Virus record (IMG/VR): IMGVR_UViG_3300045996_003052
Location: 1-64,000 of that record
Source: a virus
DNA length: 64,000 nt
Direction: 5' to 3' (one strand)
Below the pieces are notes generated by a model. The model did not search any database, was not told the origin of the DNA, and saw only the letters and a list, made by a program, of their open reading frames with translations. The first letter of the stretch is position 1. Every line of letters begins with the position of its first letter. Positions 1 to 64,000 of the stretch are shown in pieces. The position numbers and the translations under genes are program-made.

Positions 1-1100
1 GGCGATTTGCTGGCGCTCGGACTAACACTCGGAGACTCGCTTGCGGATGGCGACACGGACGCCGACGGCGATTTGCTAGCCGACGGGCTAATACTCGGCG
101 ACTCCGATGCCGACGGACTGACTGACGCTGACGGTGAGACTGATGGCGACTCACTCGCGCTGGGCGATTTCGAAGCGCTCGGTGAAATGCTTGGACTTTC
201 AGATGCCGACGGACTGATCGATGGCGATTCACTCGCGCTCGGTGAAATCGAAGGGGAGAACGCGGTGACTTCAATAATGCGTCGCCGCCAAACCATCCGC
301 GTCGTGCTGCGGAATACGTCGCGATATACATACGGCACGTACCGTACGAACTTTCGAATTGGCGTCGGCGGCATGGTTTCCGACGGACTCACGCTCGCAC
401 TCGGACTAATTGACGCAGACGGACTAATGGACGGGCTTTCACTCGACGACGGCGACGTTGAGGCACTCGGGCTGATCGACGGCGACGCGCTTGCCGACGG
501 AGACACGCTCGGCGATTCGCTCGCGCTGGGACTGACACTAGGGCTGGCGCTCGCGCTCGGCGAGACCGAGGCGCTCGGACTGACCGACGGACTAACGGAG
601 GGTGAATCAGCCGCCACAGCAAAGGGCGTATCGACCCGCGCATTCGTCGCTGCATGATTGAATGTCGGGCCAACCGCACCGCCGTGCGCGTTGTTGTTGG
701 TGACGCGGACTTCCAGGACGAAGCGATCACCCGACGCCCACGTGCCCAGACTCTGACTCGTGAAGGAGAACGTCTTGTCGCCGGTCGTCGCGGTGGATTG
801 TTCGGCTGAGTAGCCGGAGCTGGTCTGGATCGCGCCGCTACTGTCGACACGGTGGAGTTGGACGGCCGCCGTTGTACCGGCGGCGGCAACCGAGACGTTC
901 AAGACGATGCTGTAATCGCCAGTCGCGCCTCCAACACCTGGTATCCCTGCGAGTGTCGCAAAATACCCGCTGCTAGTGCCGCCCGAATTGGTCGCGGTAA
1001 TCGTGTCCGTGCCGCTGGCGGTCTCGTCCAGGATGTGCGTGAACGCCCCGCCGAGAGTGAGATCCGAGGCGCCGTCCTGGAAGCGGAAGGTGCGGGCCAT
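1..1100 (-). CDS. Probable virion protein with beta-rich N-domain and two Ser/Pro (SPSAS-x) repeat tracts; runs off the window end
   Basis: Manually translated from ATG at 1100 (MARTFRFQDGASDLTLGGAF...); open to the window edge. Absent from the ORF track because it has no stop in the window. Repeats at ~373-606 and ~1-260 are separated by an aromatic/basic segment (KFVRYVPYVYRDVFR). Confidence 0.8.
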   Translation of the reverse strand, partial: MARTFRFQDGASDLTLGGAFTHILDETASGTDTITATNSGGTSSGYFATLAGIPGVGGATGDYSIVLNVSVAAAGTTAAVQLHRVDSSGAIQTSSGYSAEQSTATTGDKTFSFTSQSLGTWASGDRFVLEVRVTNNNAHGGAVGPTFNHAATNARVDTPFAVAADSPSVSPSVSPSASVSPSASASPSVSPSASESPSVSPSASASPSISPSASTSPSSSESPSISPSASISPSASVSPSETMPPTPIRKFVRYVPYVYRDVFRSTTRMVWRRRIIEVTAFSPSISPSASESPSISPSASESPSISPSASKSPSASESPSVSPSASVSPSASESPSISPSASKSPSASVSPSASESPSVSPSASKS

Positions 1101-1445
1101 CTAGGGCCGCCTCTCACACGGAGCAGAGGTACCCGGCCACCAATGGCCCACTTTTAGCGCGCGTAACGGCAAGTCAGGCATAAATTCGCGTTGGCGCTCA
1201 TGCTGGCCACCATCGCTGAAAACAATTTCCGTGATCGGATTATGGTCGTATCGAACGGATCCACTACCGACCACAACGCTTCTATTTTCTTCATAGGCCC
1301 AGTAGAGCGACTGGCTTGCGAAGCGCACGATACCTAACGGATCCTGCACTTCGACCACGTCCACACCTTCACCTGGACTCGTCGGCCAGTCCTGAATCGT
1401 ACCGACCCAGGTAGCGCCATCAACATAGTGGACGCGAAGAATCAT
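1101..1445 (-). CDS. Hypothetical protein
   Basis: 114-aa ORF tightly coupled to both neighbours in the minus-strand operon. Confidence 0.65.
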   Translation of the reverse strand: MILRVHYVDGATWVGTIQDWPTSPGEGVDVVEVQDPLGIVRFASQSLYWAYEENRSVVVGSGSVRYDHNPITEIVFSDGGQHERQREFMPDLPLRALKVGHWWPGTSAPCERRP

Positions 1446-1912
1446 CCAATTTCTTCGAAAATAATTTCTCCACTAAGTGGAATGGCTCCACTGGGAGCCG
1501 CCTCAAGGCCGACCACGATTGTGCCTCCGGGCGGCACAATTACGCGCTGCTCCGGTGGGAAAATCAAATGGTAGCCATTTAGCACGTTTTCCCCAGCCCT
1601 GCGGATAACCTCGATGGTGCCGGTTGACGAGGCGCGCGATGTGTTGTTCCGTTCGACGGTCGACGTCGCCGCAGGATCTTGCACGCCTCCTAGTTTGCGT
1701 GGCGTCACGGCCGCACCGCCGCTGCCGGACGTCACGGTGGCTGGAATGCGCTTGACCGCAAACGGCAACTGTTGACTGACCTCGTCGCTGTCGTTCGTGA
1801 TATGCACCTCGTGCACCGCAACGACCACGGCTGCACCAGCTAGAAGCTCGAATAGATCCTGCGCGGCGGACACCGAAACTCCCTCGAAAACGGCGGAATA
1901 CATACGTCCCAT
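1442..1912 (-). CDS. Hypothetical beta-rich protein, possibly virion-associated
   Basis: GGAG Shine-Dalgarno upstream; Ala/Val/Gly/Ser/Thr-rich; lies between repeat-bearing genes. Confidence 0.7.
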   Translation of the reverse strand: MGRMYSAVFEGVSVSAAQDLFELLAGAAVVVAVHEVHITNDSDEVSQQLPFAVKRIPATVTSGSGGAAVTPRKLGGVQDPAATSTVERNNTSRASSTGTIEVIRRAGENVLNGYHLIFPPEQRVIVPPGGTIVVGLEAAPSGAIPLSGEIIFEEIG

Positions 1913-1922
1913 AACTGCTCTC

Positions 1923-3617
1923 CTATCGTGTAAGCATGGCTTTCATGCGCCACCGCCAATATGGTTGATACAGCCATTCCCCCGGTGGTGGGGGACTTGG
2001 TGAAATAGACGCGGACGGTGACACGCTTAAGCTCACGCTCGCACTCGGACTCACCGATGCCGAGGGACTGATTGACGGCGATTCACTCGCGCTTGGACTA
2101 ACGGACGCACTTGGACTTTGTGATGGCGATTCACTAGCGCTTGGAGATTTACTAGCCGACGGCGAAATACTCGGGCTTTCAGACGCACTCGGGCTTTTCG
2201 ACGCCGAAGGGCTGACCGACGGCGACTCTGATGCACTTGGTGAAACCGAGGCCGACGGGGATTTCGACGCCGAGGGCGAAACACTCGGTGACTCACTCGC
2301 GCTGGGACTTTTTGACGCACTCGGGGAGACGCTGGGGCTTTCCGAGGCGCTCGGACTCTTACTGGCGCTCGGCGAAATGCTGGGACTTTCGGACGCGCTT
2401 GGCGATTTCGACGCACTCGGTGATGTCGAGGCCGACGGGCTAACGGATGGACTAACCGACGATGATCCAGCAGCCGCTGGTACGAACTCCACAACCGCCC
2501 AGAGCGCCGAGACTCGCGTATCCGGGTTGCCGTCGGTCGTCTTCGCGCTGATCTGCATCGAGTCTATGGTGGTAGGTGTCCACGCCGCGCCATCCGGATC
2601 GACATAGCGCGTCAGTTTTGATTGCCGACTACCGGCTGTGTCGTCATTGGTGAACCATGAGGTTGATCCCCAAATCACCGCCGAAGCGGATGTAATGGTA
2701 CCGCCTGAGGCTTTCTTGATTTGAGGGAACCAGTTGCTCGCGGCCGAACCTGCCGCGCCGACTTGTGCGTGAACTTCGACGAGCGTGATGGTGTCGCCGG
2801 AACCGATTCCACCGACAGATCCGTTGTCGATGTCCACCCAGACATCGGAAGGATTGACAGGCAGAATCACATAATCGGTAGCATCATTCGGATCGGCTTC
2901 GTCGAGTTGCCCCTCAATCGTGCCGCTGTCGGCCCCGCCGCGTGTCGGTGACCCAGTGTCGGCATCGCCTGCCCCATTGACGCGCAAGTAGCCGACCGAT
3001 CCCACTCCAGGGAGGCCCGTCTGCGTTGACCCACTATTATCGTTTACGGCGAGGTCGTCAAAATACCATTCACCCGTCGTGTTGGCTTCGCTGTTAAGAT
3101 TGCCGCCTAACTGTATGCGCGCTGCCGTAACCGAAAGACTTCGAGTCCCCCCAATGACCTCCACCCCATCCACGAATAGACGCGAACTGTCGGAGATTCC
3201 TAAATCTGTGATGTATTCCAGTTCGATCCGATACTGCTGATTCGTCGCGAGCGCGTCTGCGGCAGCGCCGACTAATCCGTCTTCATCGTAGAGGCGTAGA
3301 ATGCCGTTCTCGTCCAAGGTCACGTACTGTCCTATAGACGCGAACTCGTTTGAAAACTGCAATATACGATTTTCCGCACTGGCGCGCGTGACGACGTATA
3401 AATAGACGCGCGGGAATAATCGGTCGAGACCAGTAGAGGCAAATTGAAACGTGTGCCCCTTGGGCGTGCCGGACGCGAGGCCGCTTATGCCCAGCGATCT
3501 ACTGCCCGTCCGCTTCTGAGTTGTGCTGCTTTGTGTAATGCCACCCTCAAGCGACTGGTGCGCGGGCTCATTCGCCAGCGTCAGGCATTCCCACCCACAG
3601 GTCAGGAGTCGCGCCAT
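1923..3617 (-). CDS. Probable virion/fibre protein with lectin-like beta domains and a ~155-aa C-terminal SPSAS repeat
   Basis: Start re-assigned to ATG 3617 (MARLLTCGWE), because the longer start overlaps the upstream gene. Ends PPPPGEWLYQPYWRWRMKAMLTR. Confidence 0.8.
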   Translation of the reverse strand: MARLLTCGWECLTLANEPAHQSLEGGITQSSTTQKRTGSRSLGISGLASGTPKGHTFQFASTGLDRLFPRVYLYVVTRASAENRILQFSNEFASIGQYVTLDENGILRLYDEDGLVGAAADALATNQQYRIELEYITDLGISDSSRLFVDGVEVIGGTRSLSVTAARIQLGGNLNSEANTTGEWYFDDLAVNDNSGSTQTGLPGVGSVGYLRVNGAGDADTGSPTRGGADSGTIEGQLDEADPNDATDYVILPVNPSDVWVDIDNGSVGGIGSGDTITLVEVHAQVGAAGSAASNWFPQIKKASGGTITSASAVIWGSTSWFTNDDTAGSRQSKLTRYVDPDGAAWTPTTIDSMQISAKTTDGNPDTRVSALWAVVEFVPAAAGSSSVSPSVSPSASTSPSASKSPSASESPSISPSASKSPSASESPSVSPSASKSPSASESPSVSPSASKSPSASVSPSASESPSVSPSASKSPSASESPSISPSASKSPSASESPSQSPSASVSPSASESPSISPSASVSPSASVSLSVSPSASISPSPPPPGEWLYQPYWRWRMKAMLTR

Positions 3618-3624
3618 CGGTGTT

Positions 3625-4080
3625 CTACGGCAGCGGCAGGAACTTCGACAGGAGATCGCCCGGTTGTCCGGCCGCCGCAACTGAGAACGAGTCGCCCGGC
3701 ACGATCTGCCAATAGTGCGTGCAGTTGCGGTTGATGTAGGCTTCTTGGCGCAGCCGCTGTTGCATCTCGGCGCGCGTGGGGTTCTGTCCGGTACCAATCT
3801 CAACCGTCCACCAGAGCGTCGTATCCTGTGAGTATTCGTTCCGCACGACCGCCGGAACATCCGAGTTCAGCATCACGCCGCCCTCGACGAGAATTTGCGG
3901 TGTACCGACGGGCAGTAGCGACTGTTTCAGCCGCCAGCGGTTATAGAGAGGCGGGTTCACGCCGGGTTCGGGGTCGATCCCTTCGATCACGTCGTAGACG
4001 CTGCCCGTCCCGCGAATCGTGCCGATGACCGCGTTACGGGCGTCGGTGTCGTCAATGGTAATCAGGACACAGGCTTTCAT
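3625..4080 (-). CDS. Hypothetical protein
   Basis: AGGAG SD; 151 aa; co-oriented in the operon. Confidence 0.7.
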   Translation of the reverse strand: MKACVLITIDDTDARNAVIGTIRGTGSVYDVIEGIDPEPGVNPPLYNRWRLKQSLLPVGTPQILVEGGVMLNSDVPAVVRNEYSQDTTLWWTVEIGTGQNPTRAEMQQRLRQEAYINRNCTHYWQIVPGDSFSVAAAGQPGDLLSKFLPLP

Positions 4081-4582
4081 CGTCGTGTTCTCCTAAATTT
4101 CCGTTTCCGTTTCCGTTTTCTGACAACACCGGTACGTATTCGTAGAATCCGTGTGTCCCGGTGTGCCTGACTTTGCCCTCGCGAATAAGTCTGAGCATGG
4201 CGTTCTCGATAGGACCGCCGCCCAACAACTTGACGTGTTCGATGATCTCACGGCGGTGCACCGGGCGCGGATTGCCCTGAAGAAAGTTCGCGATCAGATC
4301 CCGGCGCTTCGTCGCCGCGATCACGCAGTCGCGCTGCTTTGAGGCGGCAATAAAAAGCGGAGAAGGACGATGGCCACGCCGTTTCTTCTTGACTGGTTCT
4401 TCTGCCGGACGGTCCTCTGCCGGACGGTCCTTCAGCACAATCTGATTGTTAACCGGCTCGGCCGACACGTAGGCGGGTTTGTCCTCGCCGAACGGCAACT
4501 GGAGTGCTCCGACGAGCTTGCGCACCTCGTCTACCGTGTCGCACTCCACCAGAATGTCGTCCATGCGAACCCTAAATGCCAT
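4052..4582 (-). CDS. Putative winged-helix DNA-binding protein
   Basis: Basic linker followed by a wHTH-like C-terminus (HRREIIEHV...IENAMLRLIREGKVRHTG...YEY). Confidence 0.55.
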   Translation of the reverse strand: MAFRVRMDDILVECDTVDEVRKLVGALQLPFGEDKPAYVSAEPVNNQIVLKDRPAEDRPAEEPVKKKRRGHRPSPLFIAASKQRDCVIAATKRRDLIANFLQGNPRPVHRREIIEHVKLLGGGPIENAMLRLIREGKVRHTGTHGFYEYVPVLSENGNGNGNLGEHDDESLCPDYH

Positions 4583-4586
4583 CAGA

Positions 4587-5606
4587 TCAGCGCCTCACAA
4601 CCGTCATGCTGGCCGTACCAACATTTCCTGAAGTATCCCTTACCTCCACGCGCACCAGGTAGGTGCCAGCAGTGCGGATGGTGGTATACATCGTGTAGCT
4701 GGTGCTCTGATGCGTCAGGTGCGCGGCCTCGACGGCGCCGATGTAGAGGTAGACATGCGCCACGTCTGTGGCGCGGGTCTTCACTGAGAAGTTGAAGTTA
4801 GGCGAGTTGCCAGACCGGCGGTAGGTCAGGTCGTACACGTCTGGAGCCTCGGTGTCAGTCGGCGGTGGCGGTGGCGGAGGTTGTGCCGCGCCTGACTGAG
4901 ACACGTTATACGTGACGGAACTTCCGGCAAAAGCCAGCATCGCCGTGCGCGGCGACGTGGAGGTATTGGGCGCGGCAGTAAAAGAGACGGCCACGCTGCC
5001 CGTGCCGTTGGTCGGGGTGAGTGTCAGCCAGGTCGACGAGTTACCCAAGGACCACTGACAATTCGTAGCCGACGCCTGCACGCCGAAGATACCTTGGCCG
5101 CCGGCGGCCGCAATGGGGTCGGTCGAAACAGGAATATTGAGTGTGAAGGTGCACGGCGGAGGCAGGGGCGGCGGTGTGCCGCCATCGCCATTAACTACAC
5201 GCGACGTTATCGGGCTCCACAGCGTTTCACTGACAACAGTGCCATCAGCCAGCGTCCGGGACGCCTGGATGGCGACTTGCGCTCCGAGCTGATGAGAGCC
5301 GGCCGTGAGCACGATGGGACCGGCGACGAACGGCACGATCCCAGTTACCGGGTCGTAGGTATAGGTCTCGCGATTCGCCGCACCCTCCCAGACCGCCACC
5401 CCGTCCACAGTCACCAGCACCCGCTGGATGGACTGGAGAGTGCCATCTGCCAGCCTGATCGGTTGACACACAATGACGCGCACGGGAACACCTACAGGCG
5501 CAACTAGCGGACTGGTATCTGGACAGGTGTTAAGGGTTTGAGCGGAGATATTACCTGCTAGGGTTAATAAAAGCAGGAGATACCAGAAAACTATTTTTCG
5601 AATCAC
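4587..5606 (-). CDS. Secreted protein with signal peptide, Ig-like domains and a BACON-like domain
   Basis: N-terminal MIRKIVFWYLLLLLTLAGNISA signal peptide; poly-Pro linkers; BACON-like CxW...WLTLTP...G.G.V.FT..PNT...RTA.L....YNVSQ. Confidence 0.7.
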   Translation of the reverse strand: MIRKIVFWYLLLLLTLAGNISAQTLNTCPDTSPLVAPVGVPVRVIVCQPIRLADGTLQSIQRVLVTVDGVAVWEGAANRETYTYDPVTGIVPFVAGPIVLTAGSHQLGAQVAIQASRTLADGTVVSETLWSPITSRVVNGDGGTPPPLPPPCTFTLNIPVSTDPIAAAGGQGIFGVQASATNCQWSLGNSSTWLTLTPTNGTGSVAVSFTAAPNTSTSPRTAMLAFAGSSVTYNVSQSGAAQPPPPPPPTDTEAPDVYDLTYRRSGNSPNFNFSVKTRATDVAHVYLYIGAVEAAHLTHQSTSYTMYTTIRTAGTYLVRVEVRDTSGNVGTASMTVVRR

Positions 5607-7252
5607 TTTACGTTCTCCTGAAGAAACTGCTCAAAGCGTCCCTTCGTGACGCCCCAACCCGGCACCTCGTCAACTAAAGCCCAACCCTCGCAAGCTTTAG
5701 GGTTCCGAAATTCGGACGGATCCCAACGCGACTCGGTCAGGTTCTGGGCGTGGCGAAGATCAACGTTGGGGAACGGACTCATCCATCGCTGCGCGGAATA
5801 GCTATCCACGCCTCGCGGTGGTCGATGGCACCCGGGTTCAAAACCCATCGCCCGAGTAAAACCTTCCCGCTCCACCCGCTCGATACGCTTTCGATAGTGC
5901 TCGATGAGCAATTTACGGTAAGCGCATAGCCCCGATGTCTGCTTCGTGTAATAGAAGACCGCTTGCCCTGTTTTTGTGTCAACTTTGTAGGTATTTTCAT
6001 TGTAGTAAAAGACGTCAGCCTGTGGCGGCGTAAACTCAAAGTGCGACGAGTGGTACAACACGTCGTGCTCACACAGGAAAACAATGTCGGCGTCGGTGGC
6101 CTCAAGGCCAGCGAGAATTTGGCGAAACATCGTCATAGTCCCGCGTTCAAGGGGGACTACGACGTTCCTGCCAAAATCCAGTGGTTTTAACGAAACCGAC
6201 ACCAAGTCGTGTCCGTTAAGGCTGTGCTGCAGCCGCTGCCGCACCGGCGCGGCCAGCTTCTCGTCAAGCCGGCTATCCGTATAATAGATCGCGGCTTTCT
6301 TTAGCGGTTTTCCGGCCACGTCCTCCCACCCTGGTACCGGCGCAAACTTCTTAATAAGCCACTCGAACGGCAATTTCGCGCCCGGCCACTTGTTTTCTAC
6401 CCACAACTGCCGGGAGTATTTACGCGCTTTCTCGACGTCCTTGGCAGGATTCTGGTAAGGAAAGCCAAAGTCACCGCCTTGGGTACGGAACATATGGGCG
6501 TACCAGGTCTTTTTGTTGACCACCTGCCGGCCACCGGAAAGCCAAGACTTGCAGGAAATCTCAACGCCCATCTGGCCCCAAGAACCATGGCGTTCGTCCA
6601 ATCCCCCAAGCTCCCAGTACCGTTTTCTGTGCATGAACCAACAGGCTCCAAGATTGCACATCACGTCAACGATGTCGCCTTGGGCCTCAGGGCGCGACTT
6701 GTAGCCGCCCCAGTACTGAAAATGAAGATCGCGGTCAAATCGCCACGCCTCAGTCATCTTATGTAGGCGCGGCTTCCAAATCATCTCGCGACGCATCCCA
6801 ATTCGCTTGCACAGTGGACACTTTTCAGGAGTCGGCCCCTGATAGATTCGGCCCTGGCAGCCTTTTCCATCGCCCTCGTAGCTGTGGCACACCCAGTCGA
6901 AAGCGTGCAAGTTATACATCCGTGGAATGACTGTCCAGTCACGCTCGCAGTCTGCCATTAACTTAACGTCGAAGCCCTCGTCAACCGAGCAGTGCGCGTC
7001 CAATTTCATGATAAACTTGGACTGCGACAACCACGCTGCCTGATTCGTCGCGCCGCGTTGACCGCGAGGGTTGGCGTTATAAATGACCTGAACCCTTGGG
7101 TCCTGTGGCAATTCAAACCCCGCCACTGCCCACTGCCCGTCAAACACAACGATGACCTCTGTATCTCCCCTAGAATTGTCAAGAACGTCCTTGACAGTTC
7201 GCGCCAGGAACATCTCGTTGCGCGCCGGAATAAGTACAGATAAATCTGCCAC
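5603..7252 (-). CDS. Two-domain GT-A glycosyltransferase; N-domain resembles polypeptide GalNAc-transferase (GT2/GT27-like)
   Basis: LSVLIPARNE start, DAH metal motif, WGQMGVEISCKSWLSGG...AHMFR; second domain with FLCEHDVLY (DxD-like). Confidence 0.85.
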   Translation of the reverse strand: MADLSVLIPARNEMFLARTVKDVLDNSRGDTEVIVVFDGQWAVAGFELPQDPRVQVIYNANPRGQRGATNQAAWLSQSKFIMKLDAHCSVDEGFDVKLMADCERDWTVIPRMYNLHAFDWVCHSYEGDGKGCQGRIYQGPTPEKCPLCKRIGMRREMIWKPRLHKMTEAWRFDRDLHFQYWGGYKSRPEAQGDIVDVMCNLGACWFMHRKRYWELGGLDERHGSWGQMGVEISCKSWLSGGRQVVNKKTWYAHMFRTQGGDFGFPYQNPAKDVEKARKYSRQLWVENKWPGAKLPFEWLIKKFAPVPGWEDVAGKPLKKAAIYYTDSRLDEKLAAPVRQRLQHSLNGHDLVSVSLKPLDFGRNVVVPLERGTMTMFRQILAGLEATDADIVFLCEHDVLYHSSHFEFTPPQADVFYYNENTYKVDTKTGQAVFYYTKQTSGLCAYRKLLIEHYRKRIERVEREGFTRAMGFEPGCHRPPRGVDSYSAQRWMSPFPNVDLRHAQNLTESRWDPSEFRNPKACEGWALVDEVPGWGVTKGRFEQFLQENVK

Positions 7253-7259
7253 GACCTAG

Positions 7260-7433
7260 CTACGCTCCCCCCGCCTGGCGAATTACCTCTTCTCGAAGTT
7301 TTTCACGATAATCTGGCAACAGTTCCTTACAGCTCCCGCAGAGCGGGATGCTGTACTGCCCAATCGGCGGCGTGTGCGTTTTGCCAGCGATACAGTCGTC
7401 GGTTTCCTGCTTGCAAATGAAGCACTTAGCCAT
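7260..7433 (-). CDS. Small zinc-finger protein
   Basis: MAKCFIC...CGSC; start re-assigned to ATG 7433. Confidence 0.5.
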   Translation of the reverse strand: MAKCFICKQETDDCIAGKTHTPPIGQYSIPLCGSCKELLPDYREKLREEVIRQAGGA

Positions 7434-7773
7434 TGACCACCTGCAGAGGAATATATTTTCGGCTACTGTCGCATCGGTCTGAAAACACCATAATGGCGCG
7501 AGACTCGCAGCGATATTCACGGCACAGTTGAGGGCGACGCTCATAGATTCCGCACAGCCCCTCTTCCGTTAACTGATTACACCGGCGCCGAATCTTTACC
7601 TGCCCGTTCGACAGCACAGTAGACATTCGCCGTAACTCCTCAAGGGTCACGCCCCACAGGCCGTGAACTTCAAGGAAGTATTGCCCGTCAATAGTCAGGT
7701 AGAGCTCGGGGAACAAGAGGTGCAGCGGCTCGATGTCTAGGTCTTCGCAGCACTTGGAACAATACTTTGACAC
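7426..7773 (-). CDS. YkgJ-like CxxCC cysteine-cluster (putative Fe-S/Zn) protein
   Basis: CSKCC...RCNQL...CGIYERRPQLCREY signature. Confidence 0.75.
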   Translation of the reverse strand: MSKYCSKCCEDLDIEPLHLLFPELYLTIDGQYFLEVHGLWGVTLEELRRMSTVLSNGQVKIRRRCNQLTEEGLCGIYERRPQLCREYRCESRAIMVFSDRCDSSRKYIPLQVVNG

Positions 7774-7994
7774 CTCGCCTCCCTCCTGGCAGCCTTATCA
7801 GCTCGGCGTGCCGCTTTCCCGCGTACTTTCTTCACAACACGACGGATGACCTGCGTATCGTGGTCGCGTTGGTATATAGTCTGATCACTAGTCTTTAAGT
7901 AGCCTCGGTCCGTCTCGTGCGGTTCATATATGTGGTGAGACCGGCCTTTGCTAGAGAATGTTCGCTCAATAACTTGTCCAGTTTTACTGTCCAA
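7737..7994 (-). CDS. Small basic hypothetical protein
   Basis: 85-aa ORF in the operon; C-terminal KVRGKAARRADK. Confidence 0.5.
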   Translation of the reverse strand: MDSKTGQVIERTFSSKGRSHHIYEPHETDRGYLKTSDQTIYQRDHDTQVIRRVVKKVRGKAARRADKAARREARCQSIVPSAAKT

Positions 7995-7997
7995 GGG

Positions 7998-8648
7998 CTA
8001 CTCCTTCACCCAAAACCAGGAACGCGGACGGTCGCGTTTCTCGCCTTCCTTTACGTCCTTGCGCCCGACGACGAACCACGGGCTAATGAAGAACGCGTCT
8101 GTGTAGGCGTTAACCGCCTGCACTACGTGGCACTGGTACGGCCCAGGACCGCGCCGACAGTAATCGTGGCCAGCCACGATACCGCCCTTCCGCACCTTCT
8201 TCTCCCAGGCGCAGATGTCGTCCATGACCCACGGCAGCCCGTGGTTCGCATCGATATAGACGAAGTCCAATGAAGTGTCCCTGAAATCTCGGGACGCCTC
8301 AACGCTAAACTTACGGATAAACTTTACCCGGCCTTCAAACGGCGCAAGGCGATCTTTCGCCGTAGCCAGGAGGCCGTCGACCTTGGACTGCGTGACGTGG
8401 TCACGGTAGCCCTGGTACGCCTTCCAAGCATCGACGCAAAAAAGTCGCAGGTTAGGATTACGCTTCAGCAGCACTTCAGAGTACTTGCCGGTCTCTACCC
8501 CAAGCTCCACACCCGTCTCATACCCAAGTTCAAAAAATAACGACGCGAGGTCGTCGCGGTCGACGTCAGGGAGCTCGACAGGCTGGCGAGCGTGTTTCGG
8601 GTCCGCTAACTCGTATTTCTTTGTAACATGCCACAACGTGTCAGGCAA
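7998..8648 (-). CDS. Class I SAM-dependent methyltransferase (Methyltransf_24-like, probable sugar O-methyltransferase)
   Basis: GVELGVETG, VDAW, LDFVYIDANH, GGIVAGHDY motifs. Confidence 0.85.
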   Translation of the reverse strand: MPDTLWHVTKKYELADPKHARQPVELPDVDRDDLASLFFELGYETGVELGVETGKYSEVLLKRNPNLRLFCVDAWKAYQGYRDHVTQSKVDGLLATAKDRLAPFEGRVKFIRKFSVEASRDFRDTSLDFVYIDANHGLPWVMDDICAWEKKVRKGGIVAGHDYCRRGPGPYQCHVVQAVNAYTDAFFISPWFVVGRKDVKEGEKRDRPRSWFWVKE

Positions 8649-9531
8649 GCGCTCTCTCCCAGAAACCTTTAATGATTTTCGGCCAGCTAAAGCGCTCGTG
8701 GGCTACCTGAATTTCTTCAGGCCGCACGCGACGGTAGGGCTGTTGAAACAGCGCCACCAGTTGGTCGATGACTTGTTGCCGCGGCAACTCCTCGATGTAC
8801 TCCGCAAGGTCCCCGTACCACTGCTGGTAATGTGGCCGATTGTACAGGACCGGGCGGGCACCGCAGAACAGCCCCTCGACGGCAGGCAGCTCGAAACCTT
8901 CTGTCCGGCGTAGGGGGCAGACGTACCGCACCTGAGACATAACCGACGCCAATTGGTCGTCGCTTATGTCTTGTTGGCAATCGATGTCCATCCCACGGTG
9001 AATAGGGCCACCCAAGTGAAACGCTTTTTTACCTACCAATCGAGTGGCCCAGGCCACCTCCCTAACCCCCTCCGTGAGCCACGACTGCCCGTGGGTCATC
9101 GAGAGGTAGGGGCGACTCCCGTTCAAACTCAACCTATCAAAGAACACACTACCGTGTGCTCCGAGGGGCGCGTGGTAGAACTCCCACGTTCGTTCACGGT
9201 TTTCACCGTCCTCAGCTGCCAAAGCATCAAGGTTGTAGTAGCTCCAAACCAACCTTGAATTTTTCCAAAGTGACCGCCAGTCCTGCGTGCGTGGTTTCTG
9301 CGTACTGCGTAAGCAGTACTGGATAACCGCGTATTTTTTCCCCGCAACCATCAGATCTCGCGCCTCGTTGTGGATCTGCTCACACCTACCGATGACGTGG
9401 AGCACTACGAGGTCCGCCTCGCCGACACGGTCAACGACGTGGACCTCAGGCGGGGCGTACTGCTTTAGGGCAGCTTCCACACGCCTGAGCGAGGGCGACT
9501 TGACCGGCGGTGGTTCGAGATAAACTTTCAA
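8641..9531 (-). CDS. GT-B glycosyltransferase (GT4-like)
   Basis: EGFELPAVE (EX7E) motif and terminal FSW. Confidence 0.8.
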   Translation of the reverse strand: MKVYLEPPPVKSPSLRRVEAALKQYAPPEVHVVDRVGEADLVVLHVIGRCEQIHNEARDLMVAGKKYAVIQYCLRSTQKPRTQDWRSLWKNSRLVWSYYNLDALAAEDGENRERTWEFYHAPLGAHGSVFFDRLSLNGSRPYLSMTHGQSWLTEGVREVAWATRLVGKKAFHLGGPIHRGMDIDCQQDISDDQLASVMSQVRYVCPLRRTEGFELPAVEGLFCGARPVLYNRPHYQQWYGDLAEYIEELPRQQVIDQLVALFQQPYRRVRPEEIQVAHERFSWPKIIKGFWERALA

Positions 9532-9665
9532 ACGTCTCCCTCATCGCGTCGATATAGGACGCGAGCTCCACGGGCATTGGCCCACGGTAGACCAGGTCCT
9601 GGTCCACAAAGACCAAGACCTGGTCGTCGGTCTCCCAAACCACGTAGAAATCGAACACCGTAGCT

Positions 9666-9863
9666 TTAGGTGACGGCCGGCTCGTCCGTGGCGTCGGTGT
9701 CGTCTTCAGGTCGAGTCCAACCATCCGCCTTGTTACGCTCGCGCCATTCTTGGTTGGTGCCCTGCTTCGTCTCCGTCTCCCCAGTCGCTGGATTGACGCG
9801 TGTCCAAGTGCTAAGCTTCTGCTGACCACGCGCCGAGTCGGTACCACGATCTTCTGGCTTCAT
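9666..9863 (-). CDS. Small hypothetical protein
   Basis: Strong AAGGAGG SD upstream of the ATG. Confidence 0.65.
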   Translation of the reverse strand: MKPEDRGTDSARGQQKLSTWTRVNPATGETETKQGTNQEWRERNKADGWTRPEDDTDATDEPAVT

Positions 9864-9882
9864 CCTATCCTCCTTTTTGTTT

Positions 9883-10037
9883 ACGCCGACGAGAATTTAG
9901 CCCCGACGCCGTCTTCCGGCTCTAGGAGCGTGTCTATTCCTACCCAACAGAGACGGGGACATCCGCCCCGCATACCTTGGCACATCCCGCATTCTGCGGG
10001 AGGCGACAAGCGTTGCCTTCATCGTGTATTTCGGCAT
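9883..10037 (-). ncRNA. Candidate structured RNA (multi-hairpin domain)
   Basis: Outer stem 9883-9889/10031-10037 encloses five hairpins; lies between ORFs. Confidence 0.35.
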
Positions 10038-10040
10038 CGA

Positions 10041-10253
10041 TTATTTCCTCCTCAATAGAACGTCATTGAGCTGATCCCGCAGCCTGGCCGCCTCTGGCCG
10101 GGTCATCACCGGCCGCGCGAGAATCTCCAACTTTTCTGAAGGCGTCCCCTCTGAGAAATGCATAAAGATCTCCAGCTTCACGTTGCCGCCCTCCTCGCAC
10201 ACCAGGAGACGACGCCGCCCAAGGCACCTAACCATGTCCTTAAGGTGCGGCAC
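10041..10253 (-). CDS. Small hypothetical protein
   Basis: Overlaps the stop of the upstream glycosyltransferase; SD present. Confidence 0.55.
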   Translation of the reverse strand: MPHLKDMVRCLGRRRLLVCEEGGNVKLEIFMHFSEGTPSEKLEILARPVMTRPEAARLRDQLNDVLLRRK

Positions 10254-11217
10254 CGACGACCTCTTTCTCCCTTTTCGCCGCCTTCAGCGCCTCGGGGCCA
10301 CCAGGAAACCGCGCCTCGTGCCGTAGTTGTTCCCAGTTGGTGGGCCAATGGGGCACGGGCCAGAAGCGCTCAATGAGCCACTTGATGTCGTGGACCCGTT
10401 GGGTCCATTCGTCGAACATCCAGAAGTCAACGGCGGCCTGTGCGCCCCGGGCCATTTCGCCTTTAGAGATAAAGTACCCGCGGCCGTACTCCTTGCCCTT
10501 GTGCAGGTGCGCGTACCACGTCTTCTTATTCACCAGGACGCGTCCGCCGCCCAACCAGGCCTTGAGCCCGATCTCTTGAAATTCTTGCACGAAATTTCCA
10601 TATCGGTCCGTATCTAACGGACCGATATGCCGATTGAAATATTTTCGTTGCATGAACCAACAAGAGCCCTGGGACGACATCTCCTCATCGATAAGGATGT
10701 CTTGACGTTCATGAGCCCGTTTGGTCCAAACGGTCCCATGAAGGCCGACGCCGGGGCGGTCGGCCTCATACGGCCATGACAGGTAGTGGTAGTCGACGGG
10801 TTTCTTGCCAGTTTCCTTGAACTTCCAATTTTCTGGGTCGAGGGAGTACCTACGGGGTACTACCACCGTCTGCCTATCGCATTCTTCCTGGAGGGCTACG
10901 TCGTAGCCCTCGGCAAGCATACAGTGGGCGTCGAGCTTCATTAGGAAATCGCCAGTCGCGACGCGCGCGCACGCGTTGATAACCGTGCGCATCCCCTGCG
11001 GCGCGCCGAAGTGGACGGCGTGAACCCGCGGATCCCGCCAATCTACCTCGTGGGTAGTCCCGTCCCCGTGGGTCACAGGGACAGGCCAATACCCATCGAG
11101 GCCTACCAGAACCTCCACGTCGCCCCGGGCCTTAGCCAGGACGTCGTTGACGGTCCGGGCCATGAACTGCTCGTTGCGCGACGGGATGATGACGGAGACT
11201 TTTAGCGTCTTGGGCAT
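10240..11217 (-). CDS. GT-A glycosyltransferase, ppGalNAc-T-like; paralog of the 5603..7252 N-domain
   Basis: VSVIIPSRNE, KLDAHC, GSCWFM, EIGLKAWLGGGRVLVNKKTWYAHLHK. Confidence 0.85.
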   Translation of the reverse strand: MPKTLKVSVIIPSRNEQFMARTVNDVLAKARGDVEVLVGLDGYWPVPVTHGDGTTHEVDWRDPRVHAVHFGAPQGMRTVINACARVATGDFLMKLDAHCMLAEGYDVALQEECDRQTVVVPRRYSLDPENWKFKETGKKPVDYHYLSWPYEADRPGVGLHGTVWTKRAHERQDILIDEEMSSQGSCWFMQRKYFNRHIGPLDTDRYGNFVQEFQEIGLKAWLGGGRVLVNKKTWYAHLHKGKEYGRGYFISKGEMARGAQAAVDFWMFDEWTQRVHDIKWLIERFWPVPHWPTNWEQLRHEARFPGGPEALKAAKREKEVVGAAP

Positions 11218-11221
11218 ATTT

Positions 11222-11422
11222 TCAATATGCCTTGGACACTAACGTCACTTCAACGTCGCCGACCTGCACCTTGAGGTGGGCGGTGCCGTTGGCGGCCTCC
11301 ACCCACAAGTCCCCGTTAACCCGCTCGCGGGGAGCCATGAGCGTGGGGTTGGAGAGCTTCGTGACTTCCCGTTGGTCCCTAAAGATCTTAGACCGTCGCC
11401 TGGGAGGGCTTGTCTTCGCCAT
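11222..11422 (-). CDS. Small hypothetical protein
   Basis: GGAGGT SD. Confidence 0.6.
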   Translation of the reverse strand: MAKTSPPRRRSKIFRDQREVTKLSNPTLMAPRERVNGDLWVEAANGTAHLKVQVGDVEVTLVSKAY

Positions 11423-11434
11423 CTATTTACCTCC

Positions 11435-11716
11435 CTAGCTCGGTGACACCGAGGCTGACGGGCTCTTAGAAGCTGAAGGTGACTTTGAGGCCGACGGGCT
11501 CTTGCTCAGTGATGGTGACGCGCTCAACGAAGGTGACGGGCTGTGCGACGGTGAAACCGACCGGCTCAAGCTGGCTGATGGGCTCTTTGAAGCCGAGGCT
11601 GATGGGCTCTCTGACGGCGACGCGGAGACGCCGAGGCGGTTCTCTACCTCCGCCATCTTTTCCTCTAGCAGGTCGACGCGGTCGCTAAGTAGCTTGAAGC
11701 GAAATTGCCAAGACAT
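11435..11716 (-). CDS. Small coiled-coil protein with C-terminal SPSAS repeat (first gene of the operon)
   Basis: AGGAG SD; ~28-aa heptad helix followed by ~63 aa of Ser-X repeats ending SASVSPS. Confidence 0.75.
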   Translation of the reverse strand: MSWQFRFKLLSDRVDLLEEKMAEVENRLGVSASPSESPSASASKSPSASLSRSVSPSHSPSPSLSASPSLSKSPSASKSPSASKSPSASVSPS

Positions 11717-11811
11717 GAAGGCTCCTAATTTTCACCGCCTACCGCCTTAGGCGGTAGCGGAGACCATCACCCCGAGGTATTCGGGGCGACACACGGTAGC
11801 CGATTTGACTG

Positions 11812-11840
11812 ACTATATCACGGGCAATTTTGGTTGTACA
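11812..11840 (-). promoter_or_regulatory. Promoter for the leftward glycosylation/virion operon
   Basis: Minus strand TGTACA-N17-TATAGT, followed by a hairpin-rich leader (11735-11790). Confidence 0.6.
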
Positions 11841-44124: not shown

Positions 44125-44968
44125 ATTTCACACGGCCTGGGATGAACTGCTACGTTACCTGTTTTACCATGGCCAGACCGCGAGTCCTCGCGGGCTGACC
44201 ATCAAAGAACAGCTAAACGTCACAATTCATGTCAGAGACGCGTACCGAAACATCCTAGTCAACCCGTCGCGCAATATCGGTTACCGCGCAATGGTGGCCG
44301 AGTGGCTGTGGATTGCCGGCGGTTTCAACGACCTTGAATCGCTGGCCCAGTACAACGCAAACTACCGTAAGTTTAGCGACGACGGTGAGACGTTATACGG
44401 CGCATACGGCCCCAGGATTAGACTGAACTGGGGCGTTGTGCGCGATCAGTTGAATACTGATCGCGACACACGGCAGGCCTACCTGCCAATCTGGGGACCG
44501 GACACCAGGCGCAACACGAAGGACACGCCTTGCACGTTGGGGATGCAATTTCTAATTCGAGGCGGACAACTGCACCTGACGGTAGGGATGCGAAGTTCTG
44601 ACGCGTGGCTAGGCTTACCGAACGATTTCTACGTGTTCTCACAGCTGCAGAACGAGATGGCTGCGGCGTTAACGGTTCCAATAGGCTCACTGACGTTGAA
44701 CCTAGGATCATCGCACCTCTACGAAACTAACTTTAACCTAGTTGAACAGTCGTTCGAACACGAAAGCCGCACAATCAGAACCCCAAGTTTTAGCTATGCT
44801 ATTGAATTTTTGCCTGAACTATATCGACGTTTTCAGACAATGTCGGGTACACAGATGTCGGTTGGAGGAGAAACGATATGGGACCTCTACGCGAAGATCT
44901 TAGTGACCCCCAGTCGGGTGGACGCCTTAGCCTTGTTGAAGAAGATCGAAAAAATGACGGACGACTAG
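44069..44968 (+). CDS. Thymidylate synthase homolog with Asp at the specificity position (dCMP hydroxymethylase/methylase-like)
   Basis: YGPR, DTRQA, DTPCT (catalytic Cys), MRSSDAWLGLPND, SSHLY. Confidence 0.8.
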   Translation: MSDSSEKFVSTPTTFSAREFHTAWDELLRYLFYHGQTASPRGLTIKEQLNVTIHVRDAYRNILVNPSRNIGYRAMVAEWLWIAGGFNDLESLAQYNANYRKFSDDGETLYGAYGPRIRLNWGVVRDQLNTDRDTRQAYLPIWGPDTRRNTKDTPCTLGMQFLIRGGQLHLTVGMRSSDAWLGLPNDFYVFSQLQNEMAAALTVPIGSLTLNLGSSHLYETNFNLVEQSFEHESRTIRTPSFSYAIEFLPELYRRFQTMSGTQMSVGGETIWDLYAKILVTPSRVDALALLKKIEKMTDD

Positions 44969-51048: not shown

Positions 51049-51594
51049 TTACGAACAGATAATGCGCTGTAGCTTAGTTGTGCGGTTCCACCAACCCAGG
51101 GTCCAGATACGTTGTGACGGTTTCTTAGCAATTAGCCGCTGCATAAATTCCTCGCGGTACGTCATGAGCCTGAACGCCAGCAGCAGCTTGTCGTCAAACA
51201 GGTTATACGTGCCTAATGTAATCGGACCAATTACGCCGTCACGGTTGTCCATCCCCATCGCCGCCTGTAAGTCGGAGATCGCCGTCACCTGGCCGCTGTG
51301 GAAACCGTAGTCGTAGGTCACCAACTGGACCTTCCAGTTGGTGATGTCCGAAATCCGCGGCTCCTTCATAAACACTCTAACGCCGCAAGACACCGCCTCA
51401 TCAATTGTCAGATTCTTTACGTCCGCCTTAGTGACTACCAAATTGGGATTGCCGGAAACGAGTCGGCGGTAATACTGGATCGTGCGTAACGTAAAGCCAA
51501 ATTTCGTCGCTCCCCCGGTATCTAGGGGGTGGTCAGTGTAAAGTTTCCCTTCAAACGTGTCGATAACAAACCTAACGATGGCAGTGGGGGTCAC
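51049..51594 (-). CDS. Endolysin, glycoside hydrolase family 108
   Basis: FEG..YTDHP.D.GGATKFG, DGVIGP.T, GWWNR. Confidence 0.88.
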   Translation of the reverse strand: MTPTAIVRFVIDTFEGKLYTDHPLDTGGATKFGFTLRTIQYYRRLVSGNPNLVVTKADVKNLTIDEAVSCGVRVFMKEPRISDITNWKVQLVTYDYGFHSGQVTAISDLQAAMGMDNRDGVIGPITLGTYNLFDDKLLLAFRLMTYREEFMQRLIAKKPSQRIWTLGWWNRTTKLQRIICS

Positions 51595-52272: not shown

Positions 52273-55200
52273 TCATGTCGCAACCCTTACCATGTCCCAG
52301 GCCGTCAAAATTATCTGCTCCTCACCAAGGTTTGGGTTGATGAGGTGCCGCAGAATGAGAACTTGTGACTCCGACGCAGGGCGCAAACTGTTCCAATGGT
52401 CTACAAGTATCCGATCGCCAAGTTCATCATGCAGCGCCGTTAAATCTTGAGACGGCATTGGTATAGAGTAATGAATAGGCGCTTTTCGGTAACAGCTAAT
52501 AAAGTTTGACATCGCGGCTAGCGCTGTTGCAGGGTCCCTCGTACAATACAGCTGTAACGTCTCCGTCGGTTCATAAACTCTTCGTTGACCTTGAGTTCCA
52601 TGAGCTTGCTGCGACGGAATGTCCTCAACAGGCCCTTGGTCTAATACCCTAAACTGCCGTAGGTCTGTGTCCCAATCAAAGTCGTAATATAGCCGATTTA
52701 CGCGTTGTGAAGGAACCGGTGTTCCTTGCGGTAACGATTCTAGGTTATAAGGGAACTTATAGAGTCGCCCGGTGGTTAACGAAGCAGTCGTATACGGTAG
52801 TACAGGGAATGGTTGACCGAAATGATTTACCCCCATCAATGCGCCAAACGTTGAAAAGAATCGGCGAATAAATTCGCGAAGCGTCATAGGCTCGTCAATG
52901 CACCAGGCGCCTAAAAAGCCAATATCGTTACCTATTAAAGTTTTAGAAATTTGTTGCGCGCGTTCGTACATTGTAGTTTGGAGCACTGGTCGACTATCTA
53001 CGTATGTTTCAAGGGTGTGCATGTCCCCGCGCCGATAACCCTTGCCCCTATCCTTAAAAACGAACTCGTTAAAAAACAGTTGGAGCTGGTAGAAAGCTTG
53101 CGTAACTACCAAATTGTTCGTGCCGCGATAACCGCAAACGTTAAACGCAATCGTGACGGTTTCATCAATGTGGTGCTGCAGCCTAGGTCCCCGGATTAAA
53201 GCTGCGGTAAACCGAAACACCTCCCCATCCGAGTTTGCCTTCTCAATCCATGGGTTGGGAAACGGCCACTGCGGACTAGTCGGTAAAATGTACTCTACGC
53301 CTTCAAGGGACGGGTCCATTGGCGCCCGCGTCGGTTGTGCCTCAGGTGCCAGGTTTGAGGCATATGGGGTATCCTTAATCGTAACTTCACCAATGGACAC
53401 CACGATCATCCCCCAATAATCATCAACGGTACCAGAAACGGCCGTTGACTCAATCGGCGGGCTATAGCTCTTCGCGTGGTCTACGTCTGTAGTAGTCGGC
53501 GTTGGCGCTGGTTTCGCGCCATCGTTATAGTACGCGCGGTCGGGTTGCGTAGTACCTTGTCCGTATCCGTAATACGATTCATCTAGCCAGCTGGTAGGTG
53601 GACTTGTGTATCGCCCCCACCAGCGAACTTTGTTTTCGTCATTGGGTCCGGCGTCAAAATCGCACCGCATCTTTACGTAGTTACTCAAACCCAACGCAGC
53701 GTCTGTTGGGGCGTTCCGCACGACTAAAACGTCAGAAACGCGCGACTCGCCGTAAGGCGTAATGACGGACGCAAAAAAATACCTTGTTTGATCGCCTTCA
53801 GGGCCTACAAGTTCGTATTGAAGGTTACTGGGTGGTGGAACCATGGGCGGTGGTGTTGGGTCAATCTCACCGCCACCACCGATGCGATACATCCCAGTAT
53901 ATTTCCCTGGAATCAAACCCTTATCTGCTCGCAAACCATCAGCTGACTTAGACCCTACGTCGTTATGTTCGCCTAAAACAATAGGGTAATATAGCACTGA
54001 ATCTTCAGGTAAATTTTCGTGCTCGTCACCAATCGGGATCGCCAAGTCCCGCTCCAAGTTAAACGCGGAGAACTCAGAACCTATAATGTCGATGACCTCG
54101 AACGACACGATGCGTTCGTCGAGCAGCTGCGGGTGACCCGCTAAAATTCCCCTGAAGACCGTCCACGGTTCTAGGCCAGCCTCCAAGCCCTCGTCCGACA
54201 GCAGTAGGATGTCGCCCTCCCAGCCATCCCAGTACGACGTCTCCTCATCAGTCAGGAGTCCTCTGATAAGGCCGTCTTCGTCTGATACTACCACGGTTAT
54301 CCTGGTGACCTCGAACGCGCCGTTCGGCGTGGAGAGCGCCCGATCAATTTGCGAAATACTAATCAGGCGATCTTCCTTCCAGGAACCCGGCAGTGACTTG
54401 GGCTGGTACGACCACTCGAAAATGTCGGTACCAGCCGACATAGGGTTACGTTCAGCCCGTAATCTAAACCAGAAATTCGGACGTTTGGGGGTGGGCGGCG
54501 CTGATGGCGACGGTGAAGTGCTAGCTGATGGTGACACCGACGCAGATGGTGTTGGTGACGGCGACGGGGACCTTGACGGCGAAGCGCTAGCTGAGGGTGA
54601 GATCGACTGCGATGGCGAGACCGAGGGTGAAAGGCTAGGCGATAACGAAGCGGAAGGCGACCTCGAGGGCGATGGTGACTCGGAGGCAGACGGCGACTGT
54701 GATGCTGAAGGTGAAGGAGTCGGCGATGGCGAAGCCGAGGGCGACAGGGAGGCTGACTGGGAGATGCTCGCGCTTGGCGATTGTGACGGCGACTGTGACG
54801 CTGAGGGCGACTTTGAGGCGCTTGGTGACTCAGACGCCGATGGCGATTCAGAGGCCGACGGAGAAAGAGACGGAGACGGCGTTGGCGATGGCGACGCAGA
54901 GGGCGATAAGGACGCCGAGGGTGAAGTAGACTTTGACGCAGACGGCGACTTAGACGCCGAGGGCGACTTCGACGCGCTAGGAGACTTTGACGCCGACGTT
55001 GAAGGAGACTTTGACGCCGACGGTGACTTAGACGCGCTAGGAGAAATCGAGGGGGAAGAACTAGCTGACGGCGAAATTGATGCCGATGGTGAGCTACCAG
55101 AAATACCAGCTGCTACGTAGCCAACAAAGGCCGCGACACCATCAGCGGTATCCGCTACTATAGTAAATCCGCCGCTATCAAACGATTGAAGGTCGTGTTC

Positions 55201-63667: not shown

Positions 63668-64000
63668 TTACGCCGACGGCGACACTGAAGCCGAAGGTGA
63701 CTGGGACCCAGATGGTGATTGTGTTGCCGAGGATGAAGCTGACGGCGACGGCGATGACACGCCAAACGTAGCCGCCGCCTTCTCACGACTTAGCTGAAAG
63801 ATCTGATCGCCTCGGGTACGCGTCGTATCCGGCAGGCACTGGAACATGACGGCGTAGGTGCTGGGCGCGGTACGACTATAGGTCAGCGGCATCGCGTTAA
63901 TGGAGATGCACTTGTACGCCACAAGAATCTCGTAGGCGCCGGCGATGTCGCGTCGAGCCGACGATAAGAAAATCGTCGTATAGAGAGGCGCGATGATGCT
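63668..64000 (-). CDS. Major tail tube protein, C-terminal part, ending in a Ser/Pro extension
   Basis: Frame is open to the window edge; position upstream of the chaperone; ends SSPSPSASSSATQSPSGSQSPSASVSPSA. Confidence 0.7.
   Translation of the reverse strand, partial: SIIAPLYTTIFLSSARRDIAGAYEILVAYKCISINAMPLTYSRTAPSTYAVMFQCLPDTTRTRGDQIFQLSREKAAATFGVSSPSPSASSSATQSPSGSQSPSASVSPSA

Follow-up and report, generated by a model that had tools for sequence, protein, structure and literature searches.

The window analysed here is a stretch of 64,000 nucleotides (bases 1-64000) of the 75,742-bp IMG/VR record IMGVR_UViG_3300045996_003052, an uncultivated tailed phage whose record is flagged as having direct terminal repeats. 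At the left end of the window lies a cassette of glycosyltransferase (GT) and methyltransferase genes (5603-11217), accompanied by genes for proteins with long serine-rich tracts, and it is the relationship between these enzymes and these tracts that is considered in this study (Table 1). On the circular map, the minus-strand genes from 11716 down to 1 and from 75742 down to approximately 48850 make up one same-strand block. Its first part contains, in this order, a 93-amino-acid (aa) Ser-tract protein, the GT/methyltransferase cluster, a BACON protein, a minor-tail-like Ser-tract protein and a giant Ser-tract protein, while its second part contains the large terminase, portal, protease, major capsid protein, connectors, tail tube, a 1,684-aa tape-measure-sized protein, three tail-tip genes and the endolysin. 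The cassette heads this block of packaging, head, tail and lysis genes, and the early and DNA-metabolism genes form a rightward block at 12.1-48.5 kb. Shared strand and tight spacing suggest that the cassette genes are one operon; a scan for promoters and terminators gave a signal no better than that of shuffled sequence.

Table 1. Serine-tract carriers, cassette genes and landmark genes of the late block (SAM, S-adenosylmethionine; ORF, open reading frame).
Feature	Position	Strand	Description
93-aa mini-protein	11435-11716	-	~30-aa N-terminal helical segment and 63-aa tract (32 Ser); first gene of the leftward block
GT27-like GT-A glycosyltransferase (GT325)	10240-11217	-	325 aa, soluble and limited to the catalytic domain; candidate initiating peptide O-glycosyltransferase
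GT4-type GT-B glycosyltransferase	8641-9531	-	296 aa; invariant EX7E motif
Class I SAM methyltransferase (Methyltransf_24)	7998-8648	-	Pfam 1.2e-14; in 80/111 loci
CxxCxxCC (PF03692) small protein	7426-7773	-	Putative Zn/Fe-binding; between the methyltransferase and the 549-aa transferase; homolog in one other locus (L008)
Second GT27-like GT-A paralog, N-domain of the 549-aa protein (GT549)	6323-7252	-	Residues 1-310
Divergent GT-A C-domain of GT549 (whole gene 5603-7252)	5603-6322	-	Residues 311-549
BACON + Big_13 protein	4587-5606	-	Sec-type signal peptide; 4-nt overlap between its start and the stop of the 549-aa transferase
564-aa minor-tail-like carrier	1923-3617	-	N-domain, then 156-aa Ser tract, short aromatic/basic C-terminus
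991-aa giant mucin-like carrier	1-1100 (ORF 3-1100), on in frame to genome 73740-75615	-	
Large terminase	genome 71668-73293	-	Minus-strand block
Major capsid protein	genome 66261-67181	-	Minus-strand block
231-aa tail tube protein	63668-64363 (window part 63668-64000)	-	C-terminal Ser-rich extension
288-aa tail-module protein	56301-57167	-	Internal 41-aa Ser tract (~56535-56657); role by synteny
1,343-aa tail-tip/hub protein	52273-56304	-	415-aa extra N-domain, 186-aa Ser tract (~54499-55056), conserved tail-tip domain
Endolysin	51049-51594	-	Minus-strand block

The six minus-strand carriers hold together 1,189 tract residues, of which 606 are Ser (51%) and 11 are Thr, with Ser at every second position. 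The original prediction for this DNA had placed SPSAS-x tracts on exactly these six proteins, including the C-terminus of the tail tube protein, and had spoken of hundreds of serines; both statements hold, and the tracts are in the minus-strand frames given in Table 1. The motifs are mostly SPSAS-x and SPS-V/I within (S-x)n, and a six-frame scan found SPS-x-S-x arrays only in frames of the minus strand that also encode, without a break, globular domains. The tracts are encoded with all six Ser codons, and no 18-mer is present in more than 3 identical copies within a 2-kb tract, therefore it is the peptide pattern that is conserved, and not a DNA repeat.

The largest carrier, with 991 aa, was obtained by reading through the 127-bp 'direct terminal repeat' (DTR), across which the frame is kept, and consists of a 165-aa globular head, approximately 727 tract residues and a 50-aa C-terminal domain; the part inside the window is the N-terminal 366 aa. 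The whole of this repeat (window 1-127 = genome 75616-75742) falls within the part of the gene that encodes the serine repeats. The DTR call may have arisen as an artefact, in the assembly of a genome that is circularly permuted, and if repeats were collapsed there, the real tract may be of another length than in the assembly. In the 564-aa carrier, the N-domain is homologous to the Hiyaa-type 'minor tail protein' of Streptomyces phages, and its start is most likely at 3617, because MARLLTCGWE matches the N-terminus of the Hiyaa homolog. The tract of the tail tube protein has 16 residues by a strict regular expression (regex) and about 30 by eye, and the nearest relatives of this protein have 189-203 aa, as compared to 231 aa here. 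In the sequences of the carriers neither a signal peptide nor an LPXTG motif nor a transmembrane (TM) segment is evident. PHROG and Pfam scans of the carriers of other phages and of the tail proteins of this phage matched next to nothing, so the roles given to the carriers rest on synteny, one annotated homolog and leads from the ESM Atlas. The long tracts each close with a Pro-rich hinge that is followed by an aromatic/basic segment (minus strand, ~1923-1995, ~255-375 and ~54440-54500; PPPPGEWLYQPYWRWRMKAMLTR, PPTPIRKFVRYVPYVYRDVF..., PPTPKRPNFWFRLRAERNP). In the tail-tip protein the conserved domain begins with this segment, and in the other two carriers it might be a docking strand.

Pfam Glycos_transf_2 was found in GT325 (4e-11) and in the N-half of the 549-aa protein, and the two are approximately 38% identical, in accordance with the original prediction of two paralogous GT-A enzymes. 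NCBIfam gave GT2 matches only, below threshold, and the similarity detected by both Pfam and NCBIfam is that of a generic GT2, below the family cut-offs. When a single sequence was searched against the PDB, the matches were almost all polypeptide GalNAc-transferases (ppGalNAc-Ts), with E values from 1e-4 to 2e-3. With a profile of 29 family members, the first 14 matches were all ppGalNAc-Ts (E 8e-16 to 6e-11), aligned over at least positions 3-213 and up to positions 3-258 of 288, the best being ppGalNAc-T1 (E 8e-16, positions 3-255), while the other GT2 enzymes mostly aligned over the first ~84-120 positions, that is, the N-terminal nucleotide-binding part. Residues D96, H98, H237 and W234 are invariant in the 29 members and E215 is nearly so. 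Both paralogs contain LDAHC, where D96 and H98 align to the DAHC of GalNAc-T1 (the D-x-H Mn-binding motif), and at the Gal/GalNAc-T motif block 'QEaQEIglKtWLSGG...WYAH' aligns to 'GGENLEISFRIWQCGG...HVGH', including the distal His metal ligand. Pfam found no lectin domain in GT325 or in the 549-aa protein, and no TM segment was found in the cassette GTs or in the methyltransferase. Since the catalytic motifs are present but the lectin domain and the membrane anchor are absent, we term these enzymes GT27-like and do not place them in GT27. The family is large, with 263 clusters at 50% identity at E <= 1e-30 and 579 at E <= 1e-10 (325-aa query against 1.84 billion representatives), and no fusion of a GT with a tract was found in 150 cluster representatives. 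Some members (P0019-P0021, P0026, P0033) have about 1,050-1,350 aa and three tandem GT27-like domains.

The remaining enzymes of the cassette are also in line with what had been predicted. The C-domain of the 549-aa protein, proposed as a second GT domain, has no Pfam match and no PDB sequence match; it is predicted to have a GT-A fold with a predicted local distance difference test (pLDDT) score of 93, its structural neighbours are all nucleotide-sugar enzymes, and its family has an invariant E-x-D motif and standalone paralogs of 210-260 aa in other cassettes. The enzyme called GT4 is predicted with the same pLDDT of 93 to have a GT-B fold of GT4 type, with a template modelling (TM) score of ~0.7 to the GT4 enzymes ManT, BshA, GlgM, PglA, MshA, PimA and GtfA, and it is accessory, being present in 12 of the 111 related loci described below. 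The SAM methyltransferase is assigned by Pfam, without an informative PDB sequence match, and it is a candidate sugar O-methyltransferase, because it is co-conserved with the transferases and because of the analogy with the mycobacteriophage Corndog. No gene of the NTP_transferase, Epimerase or DegT families, which were looked for as sugar-nucleotide genes, was found in the 75.7-kb genome, so the donors must come from the host, as had been expected. Other cassettes have up to four standalone C-domain paralogs and two or three methyltransferases, and these numbers, together with the tandem GT27-like domains, imply that the glycans vary and are possibly complex.

Relatives of the 325-aa enzyme were found in 30 IMG/VR loci (32-60% identity, GC content 33-67%) and in 78 loci of GTDB species genomes, all of them contigs of metagenome-assembled genomes (MAGs); no cultured relative of either GT was found by tblastn in 50,697 INPHARED phage genomes. 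The 111 related loci span a GC content of 27-68% and the genes that they share with this phage are cassette genes only, namely the two GT-A paralogs (111 loci), the methyltransferase (80 loci) and the GT4-fold enzyme (12 loci), which means that the enzymes travel with the tracts on unrelated backbones and with non-homologous carriers. Among the 78 MAG matches (L170-L247) there is no isolate, and they are mostly labelled as Patescibacteria/candidate phyla radiation (CPR), such as Saccharibacteria, Woesebacteria, Zambryskibacteria, Daviesbacteria and others; further matches are in 'Gammaproteobacteria' MAGs, Anaerolineae (the best, with 54% identity), Planctomycetota and two archaeal bins. These MAG loci could be phage contigs, prophages or cellular loci.

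Tracts were detected as (S-x) with at least 6 repeats, merged, and at least 20 residues in length, within 10 kb around the GT. As a control, 119 random IMG/VR loci were drawn with an arbitrary 14-mer (1.10 Mb, as compared to 0.48 Mb of GT-bearing IMG/VR loci). Tracts were present in 22 of the 30 viral GT loci and in 1 of the 119 random loci (Fisher p = 1e-18), and in 24 of the 78 MAG GT loci (Fisher p = 3e-10). Among the controls, the one locus with a tract is a fragment of 38% completeness, and its tract is of the same type. When whole records were considered, 2 of the 8 tract-negative viral loci became positive, and all five complete GT-bearing records have tracts, in one record at a distance of over 10 kb from the GT. 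Measured over the 46 positive loci, the median distance between a GT and the closest carrier ORF is 853 bp; it is below 2 kb in 36 loci, and the two genes share a strand in every locus. In the opposite direction, a repeat-only query led to one new complete record of 45 kb with two GT homologs (E 1.7e-114 and 8.6e-92); the low-complexity filter thwarted most of this search, and only 2 of the 244 pattern matches were confirmed, therefore the probability of a GT, given a tract, rests on very few cases. The co-occurrence of DxH-type GTs with the repeats, which was the check proposed in the original prediction, is strongly positive in both directions. Low-GC phage loci (L001, L002, L004, L005 and L012) have Thr/Pro-rich tracts (TTTPAPTTT...) beside the GT cassette, a hint that a second kind of acceptor, closer to classical mucins, may serve some of the cassettes.

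Relatives of the phage itself give the complementary picture. Single-sequence queries with the tail-tip domain and the capsid protein found no close relatives in IMG/VR, while an alignment-based query found six IMG/VR contigs that have the tape-measure, 245-aa and tail-tip genes in common with it. The GT27-like enzyme is absent from all six, one of these records being 100% complete, and the alternating-Ser tract is absent from the five that were available as whole records (214 kb), as compared to 27 regex matches in the query genome. The homologs of the conserved C-terminal domain of the tail-tip protein (33-37% identity, 758-1008 aa) have neither the 415-aa N-module nor the tract, and the tail-tip proteins of these relatives and seven further homologs all begin at the conserved domain; the tail-tip relatives without a tract measure 737-1008 aa. 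In the Hiyaa group of Streptomyces phages, the N-domain of the 564-aa carrier is followed by other domains, with no tract and no GT homolog.

This joint absence counts against an alternative in which the cassette assembles or modifies a glycan that is not on protein (such as a polysaccharide of the host envelope, a sugar linked to lipid, or a small molecule), the tracts are unmodified flexible spacers of fibres, and the two features merely accompany each other in a module for 'fibre plus host-surface remodelling'. Backbone relatives without the GT are also without tracts, and carriers that are not homologous to each other nevertheless keep the short distance and the shared strand described above. 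It is true that profile databases detect generic GT2 similarity only, that most characterised GT2 and GT4 enzymes use glycans or lipids, that Ser/Pro-rich linkers are unglycosylated in many proteins, and that no tract was found near the GT in 54 of the 78 MAG loci. However, the similarity over the full catalytic domain is specific to the peptide-modifying GT27, and the enzymes are soluble, without the membrane segment that is expected for lipid-linked acceptors. Altogether, we consider a non-protein acceptor unlikely.

Another possible substrate is DNA, since the phage has a Thymidylat_synt-family gene (44147-44773, plus strand, E 2.6e-18) in the rightward block and other pyrimidine-modification candidates, and the transferases could glycosylate hypermodified phage DNA; the glycosylation of DNA by phage GTs is well known (cited in PMC12619734). 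None of the 30 records with a GT, 5 of which are complete genomes, has a thymidylate-synthase-family gene, with the genome of this phage as a positive control, so the cassette does not track a DNA-modification pathway. The cassette is also located in the late structural block and not in the rightward DNA-metabolism block, and it associates with Ser tracts. For these reasons DNA glycosylation was rejected as the main explanation, and we hold it to be very improbable. The original prediction had named this alternative, together with a missing association between GTs and repeats, among the outcomes that would speak against it; the association is present.

Glycosylation of the tracts does not in itself say where the carriers go. 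The 991-aa, 564-aa and 93-aa proteins might be products of the infection stage (secreted or cell-associated decoys, or matrix proteins), with decoration of the particle limited to tail proteins. Their three genes are upstream of the terminase, outside of the canonical head-to-tail order, they have no family assignment except for one 'minor tail protein' annotation, and the carriers of other phages matched no structural PHROG. On the other hand, the Hiyaa homolog of the 564-aa carrier sits between the capsid and head-to-tail adaptor genes, the sequences point neither to secretion nor to a membrane, and three further carriers are clearly in the tail module, including the tail tube, with the tail-tip relatives adjoining tape-measure genes. 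We find it quite improbable that these three carriers stay outside of the particle. The claim of the original prediction that the system 'coats the virion' was nevertheless too broad, and is better confined to tail tube, tail tip and fibre-like proteins: the major capsid protein is without a tract, the tail tube contributes only about 16-30 tract residues, and the bulk of them is on fibre-like proteins whose virion placement is inferred.

As for known systems, the closest is the GT27 family of mucin-type initiators (PDB 1XHB, 2FFU, 5NQA). The cassette enzymes share with it the GT-A fold with D-x-H, the distal His and the E..E..W..GG..H block, with about 250 residues aligned, and the presumed acceptors are dense Ser/Pro-rich tandem repeats. 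It is known that ppGalNAc-Ts show a preference for Pro near the acceptor site, and the Pro at +1, +3 or -1 of the tract serines would resemble this preference. Unlike GT27 enzymes, the cassette enzymes have no ricin-type lectin domain and no membrane anchor, would act in the cytoplasm and not in the Golgi, are only ~20% identical, face tracts that are nearly all Ser, with almost no Thr, and are encoded by phages and MAG contigs, not by eukaryotes.

To our knowledge, phage-encoded glycosylation of virion proteins has so far been documented only in mycobacteriophages, at short C-terminal sites. According to Freeman et al. (2023, Cell Host Microbe), as cited in PMC12363180, PMC11600133 and PMC12619734, mycobacteriophages with a methyltransferase and GT cluster (Che8, Corndog, Myrna) glycosylate the C-termini of the proteins that form capsid and tail tube, and Corndog gp35-38 are described in PMC11600133 and PMC12363180 as a methyltransferase and three glycosyltransferases among structural genes. 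Here too, a methyltransferase and several GTs are in the structural region, donors are presumably host-derived and the C-terminus of the tail tube bears a Ser tract, whereas the capsid protein does not. The presumed acceptors are also different, being tandem tracts of 16 to ~727 residues on six proteins as opposed to short C-terminal tails. Phmmer against Corndog gp35-38 gave at most 3.4 bits, that is, no detectable similarity, and orthology with the Corndog cassette was rejected.

The third comparison is with the serine-rich repeat proteins (SRRPs) of Gram-positive bacteria (GspB, Fap1, SraP and PsrP, with GtfA/GtfB), which have similar alternating-Ser repeats (S-A/V/E-S-x). These are modified in the cytoplasm by soluble GTs before export or assembly, the cassette GTs are likewise soluble, and pneumococcal GtfA (4PQG) is among the structural matches of the GT4-fold enzyme, at rank 31. 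The two systems differ in that the conserved core here is a GT27-like GT-A pair with a methyltransferase, the GT4-fold enzyme being found in only 12/111 loci, and in that the carriers are phage tail and fibre proteins with no evident signal peptide or LPXTG. Accessory Sec genes did not come up in the cluster, though no search was aimed at SecA2/SecY2. In a non-exhaustive full-text search of the literature, no published description of a GT27-like/Ser-tract system was found.

We therefore regard it as likely, on the strength of the genomic comparisons, that the cassette carries out cytoplasmic O-glycosylation, probably with methylation, of the Ser tracts of late and virion proteins, and the phage probably sugar-coats parts of its own particle. 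To hypothesize on the mechanism, late in infection the soluble cytoplasmic GT27-like enzymes (GT325 and the N-domain of the 549-aa protein) would move a sugar from a host donor onto the Ser hydroxyls of (S-x)n tracts on at least six late proteins, namely the tail tube, two tail-tip proteins, the minor-tail-like protein, the 991-aa fibre-like protein and the 93-aa protein. The divergent GT-A C-domain and the GT4-fold enzyme would then lengthen the glycan, the Methyltransf_24 enzyme would O-methylate it, and the outcome would be stiff, hydrophilic, protease-resistant stalks covered with glycan, and a furred tail. In this scheme we infer the tract as acceptor, the sugar, the order of the enzymes, the methyl cap, the incorporation of the non-tail carriers into the virion and the benefit to the phage, while the 'initiating, extending and methyl-capping' roles of the enzymes are proposed by analogy.

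Several points weigh against glycosylation of the tracts by this cassette, or against its extent. No tract is found within 10 kb of the GT in 8 of the 30 viral loci and in the 54 MAG loci already mentioned; many of these are fragments, but some members of the GT family may use other acceptors; GT2-type enzymes in general usually use non-protein ones. The loci are partly non-independent, with at least 3 groups of near-duplicates (L001/L002, L004/L005/L012, L006/L007). The resemblance to GT27 is remote, as seen from the single-sequence E values, and these enzymes lack both the lectin domain and the membrane anchor. The tracts are almost without Thr, whereas ppGalNAc-Ts generally favour Thr. There is no tract in the major capsid protein, and the virion placement of the 991-aa, 564-aa and 93-aa carriers is drawn from gene position and one annotated homolog.

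In a broader sense, we lean slightly towards the view that this is mucin-type O-glycosylation outside of eukaryotes, in the form of a mobile cassette (soluble GT27-like initiators, GT-A extenders of a novel kind and a sugar methyltransferase) and dedicated Ser-repeat 'glycan tags' that pass from phage to phage without regard to relatedness, many of these phages apparently having Patescibacteria/CPR or other uncultivated bacteria or archaea as hosts. Such tags could be grafted onto any virion protein, giving glycan-brush fibres and tails, and the enzyme family could bear on the origin of eukaryotic ppGalNAc-Ts. The evidence points to a system different from, and far more extensive than, the virion glycosylation of mycobacteriophages, as the nearest characterised relatives of the enzymes start animal mucin glycosylation and the presumed acceptors, dedicated tracts, run to hundreds of residues. 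It is also a mobile module, with the core enzyme in at least 263 sequence clusters and more than 100 loci. If this proves to be true, it would represent a new class of soluble peptide O-glycosyltransferases of the bacterial world, with a simple and portable acceptor tag useful for glyco-engineering, and it would account for the abundant low-complexity Ser arrays in metagenomic phage proteins. It would also bring in a new influence on how stable phages are, how they adsorb and how they evade immunity or defence, and a comparison point from prokaryotic viruses for the origin of GT27. The 93-aa mini-protein and the 325-aa enzyme make the question of glycosylation directly testable in E. coli.

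Among the minor features of the locus, the plus-strand ORF at 1-657 (GDSLALGLTLGD...) is an antisense shadow of the serine repeat and not a gene. The BACON/Big_13 protein, which is not conserved across other cassettes, could be a glycan-binding virion protein or a secreted protein.

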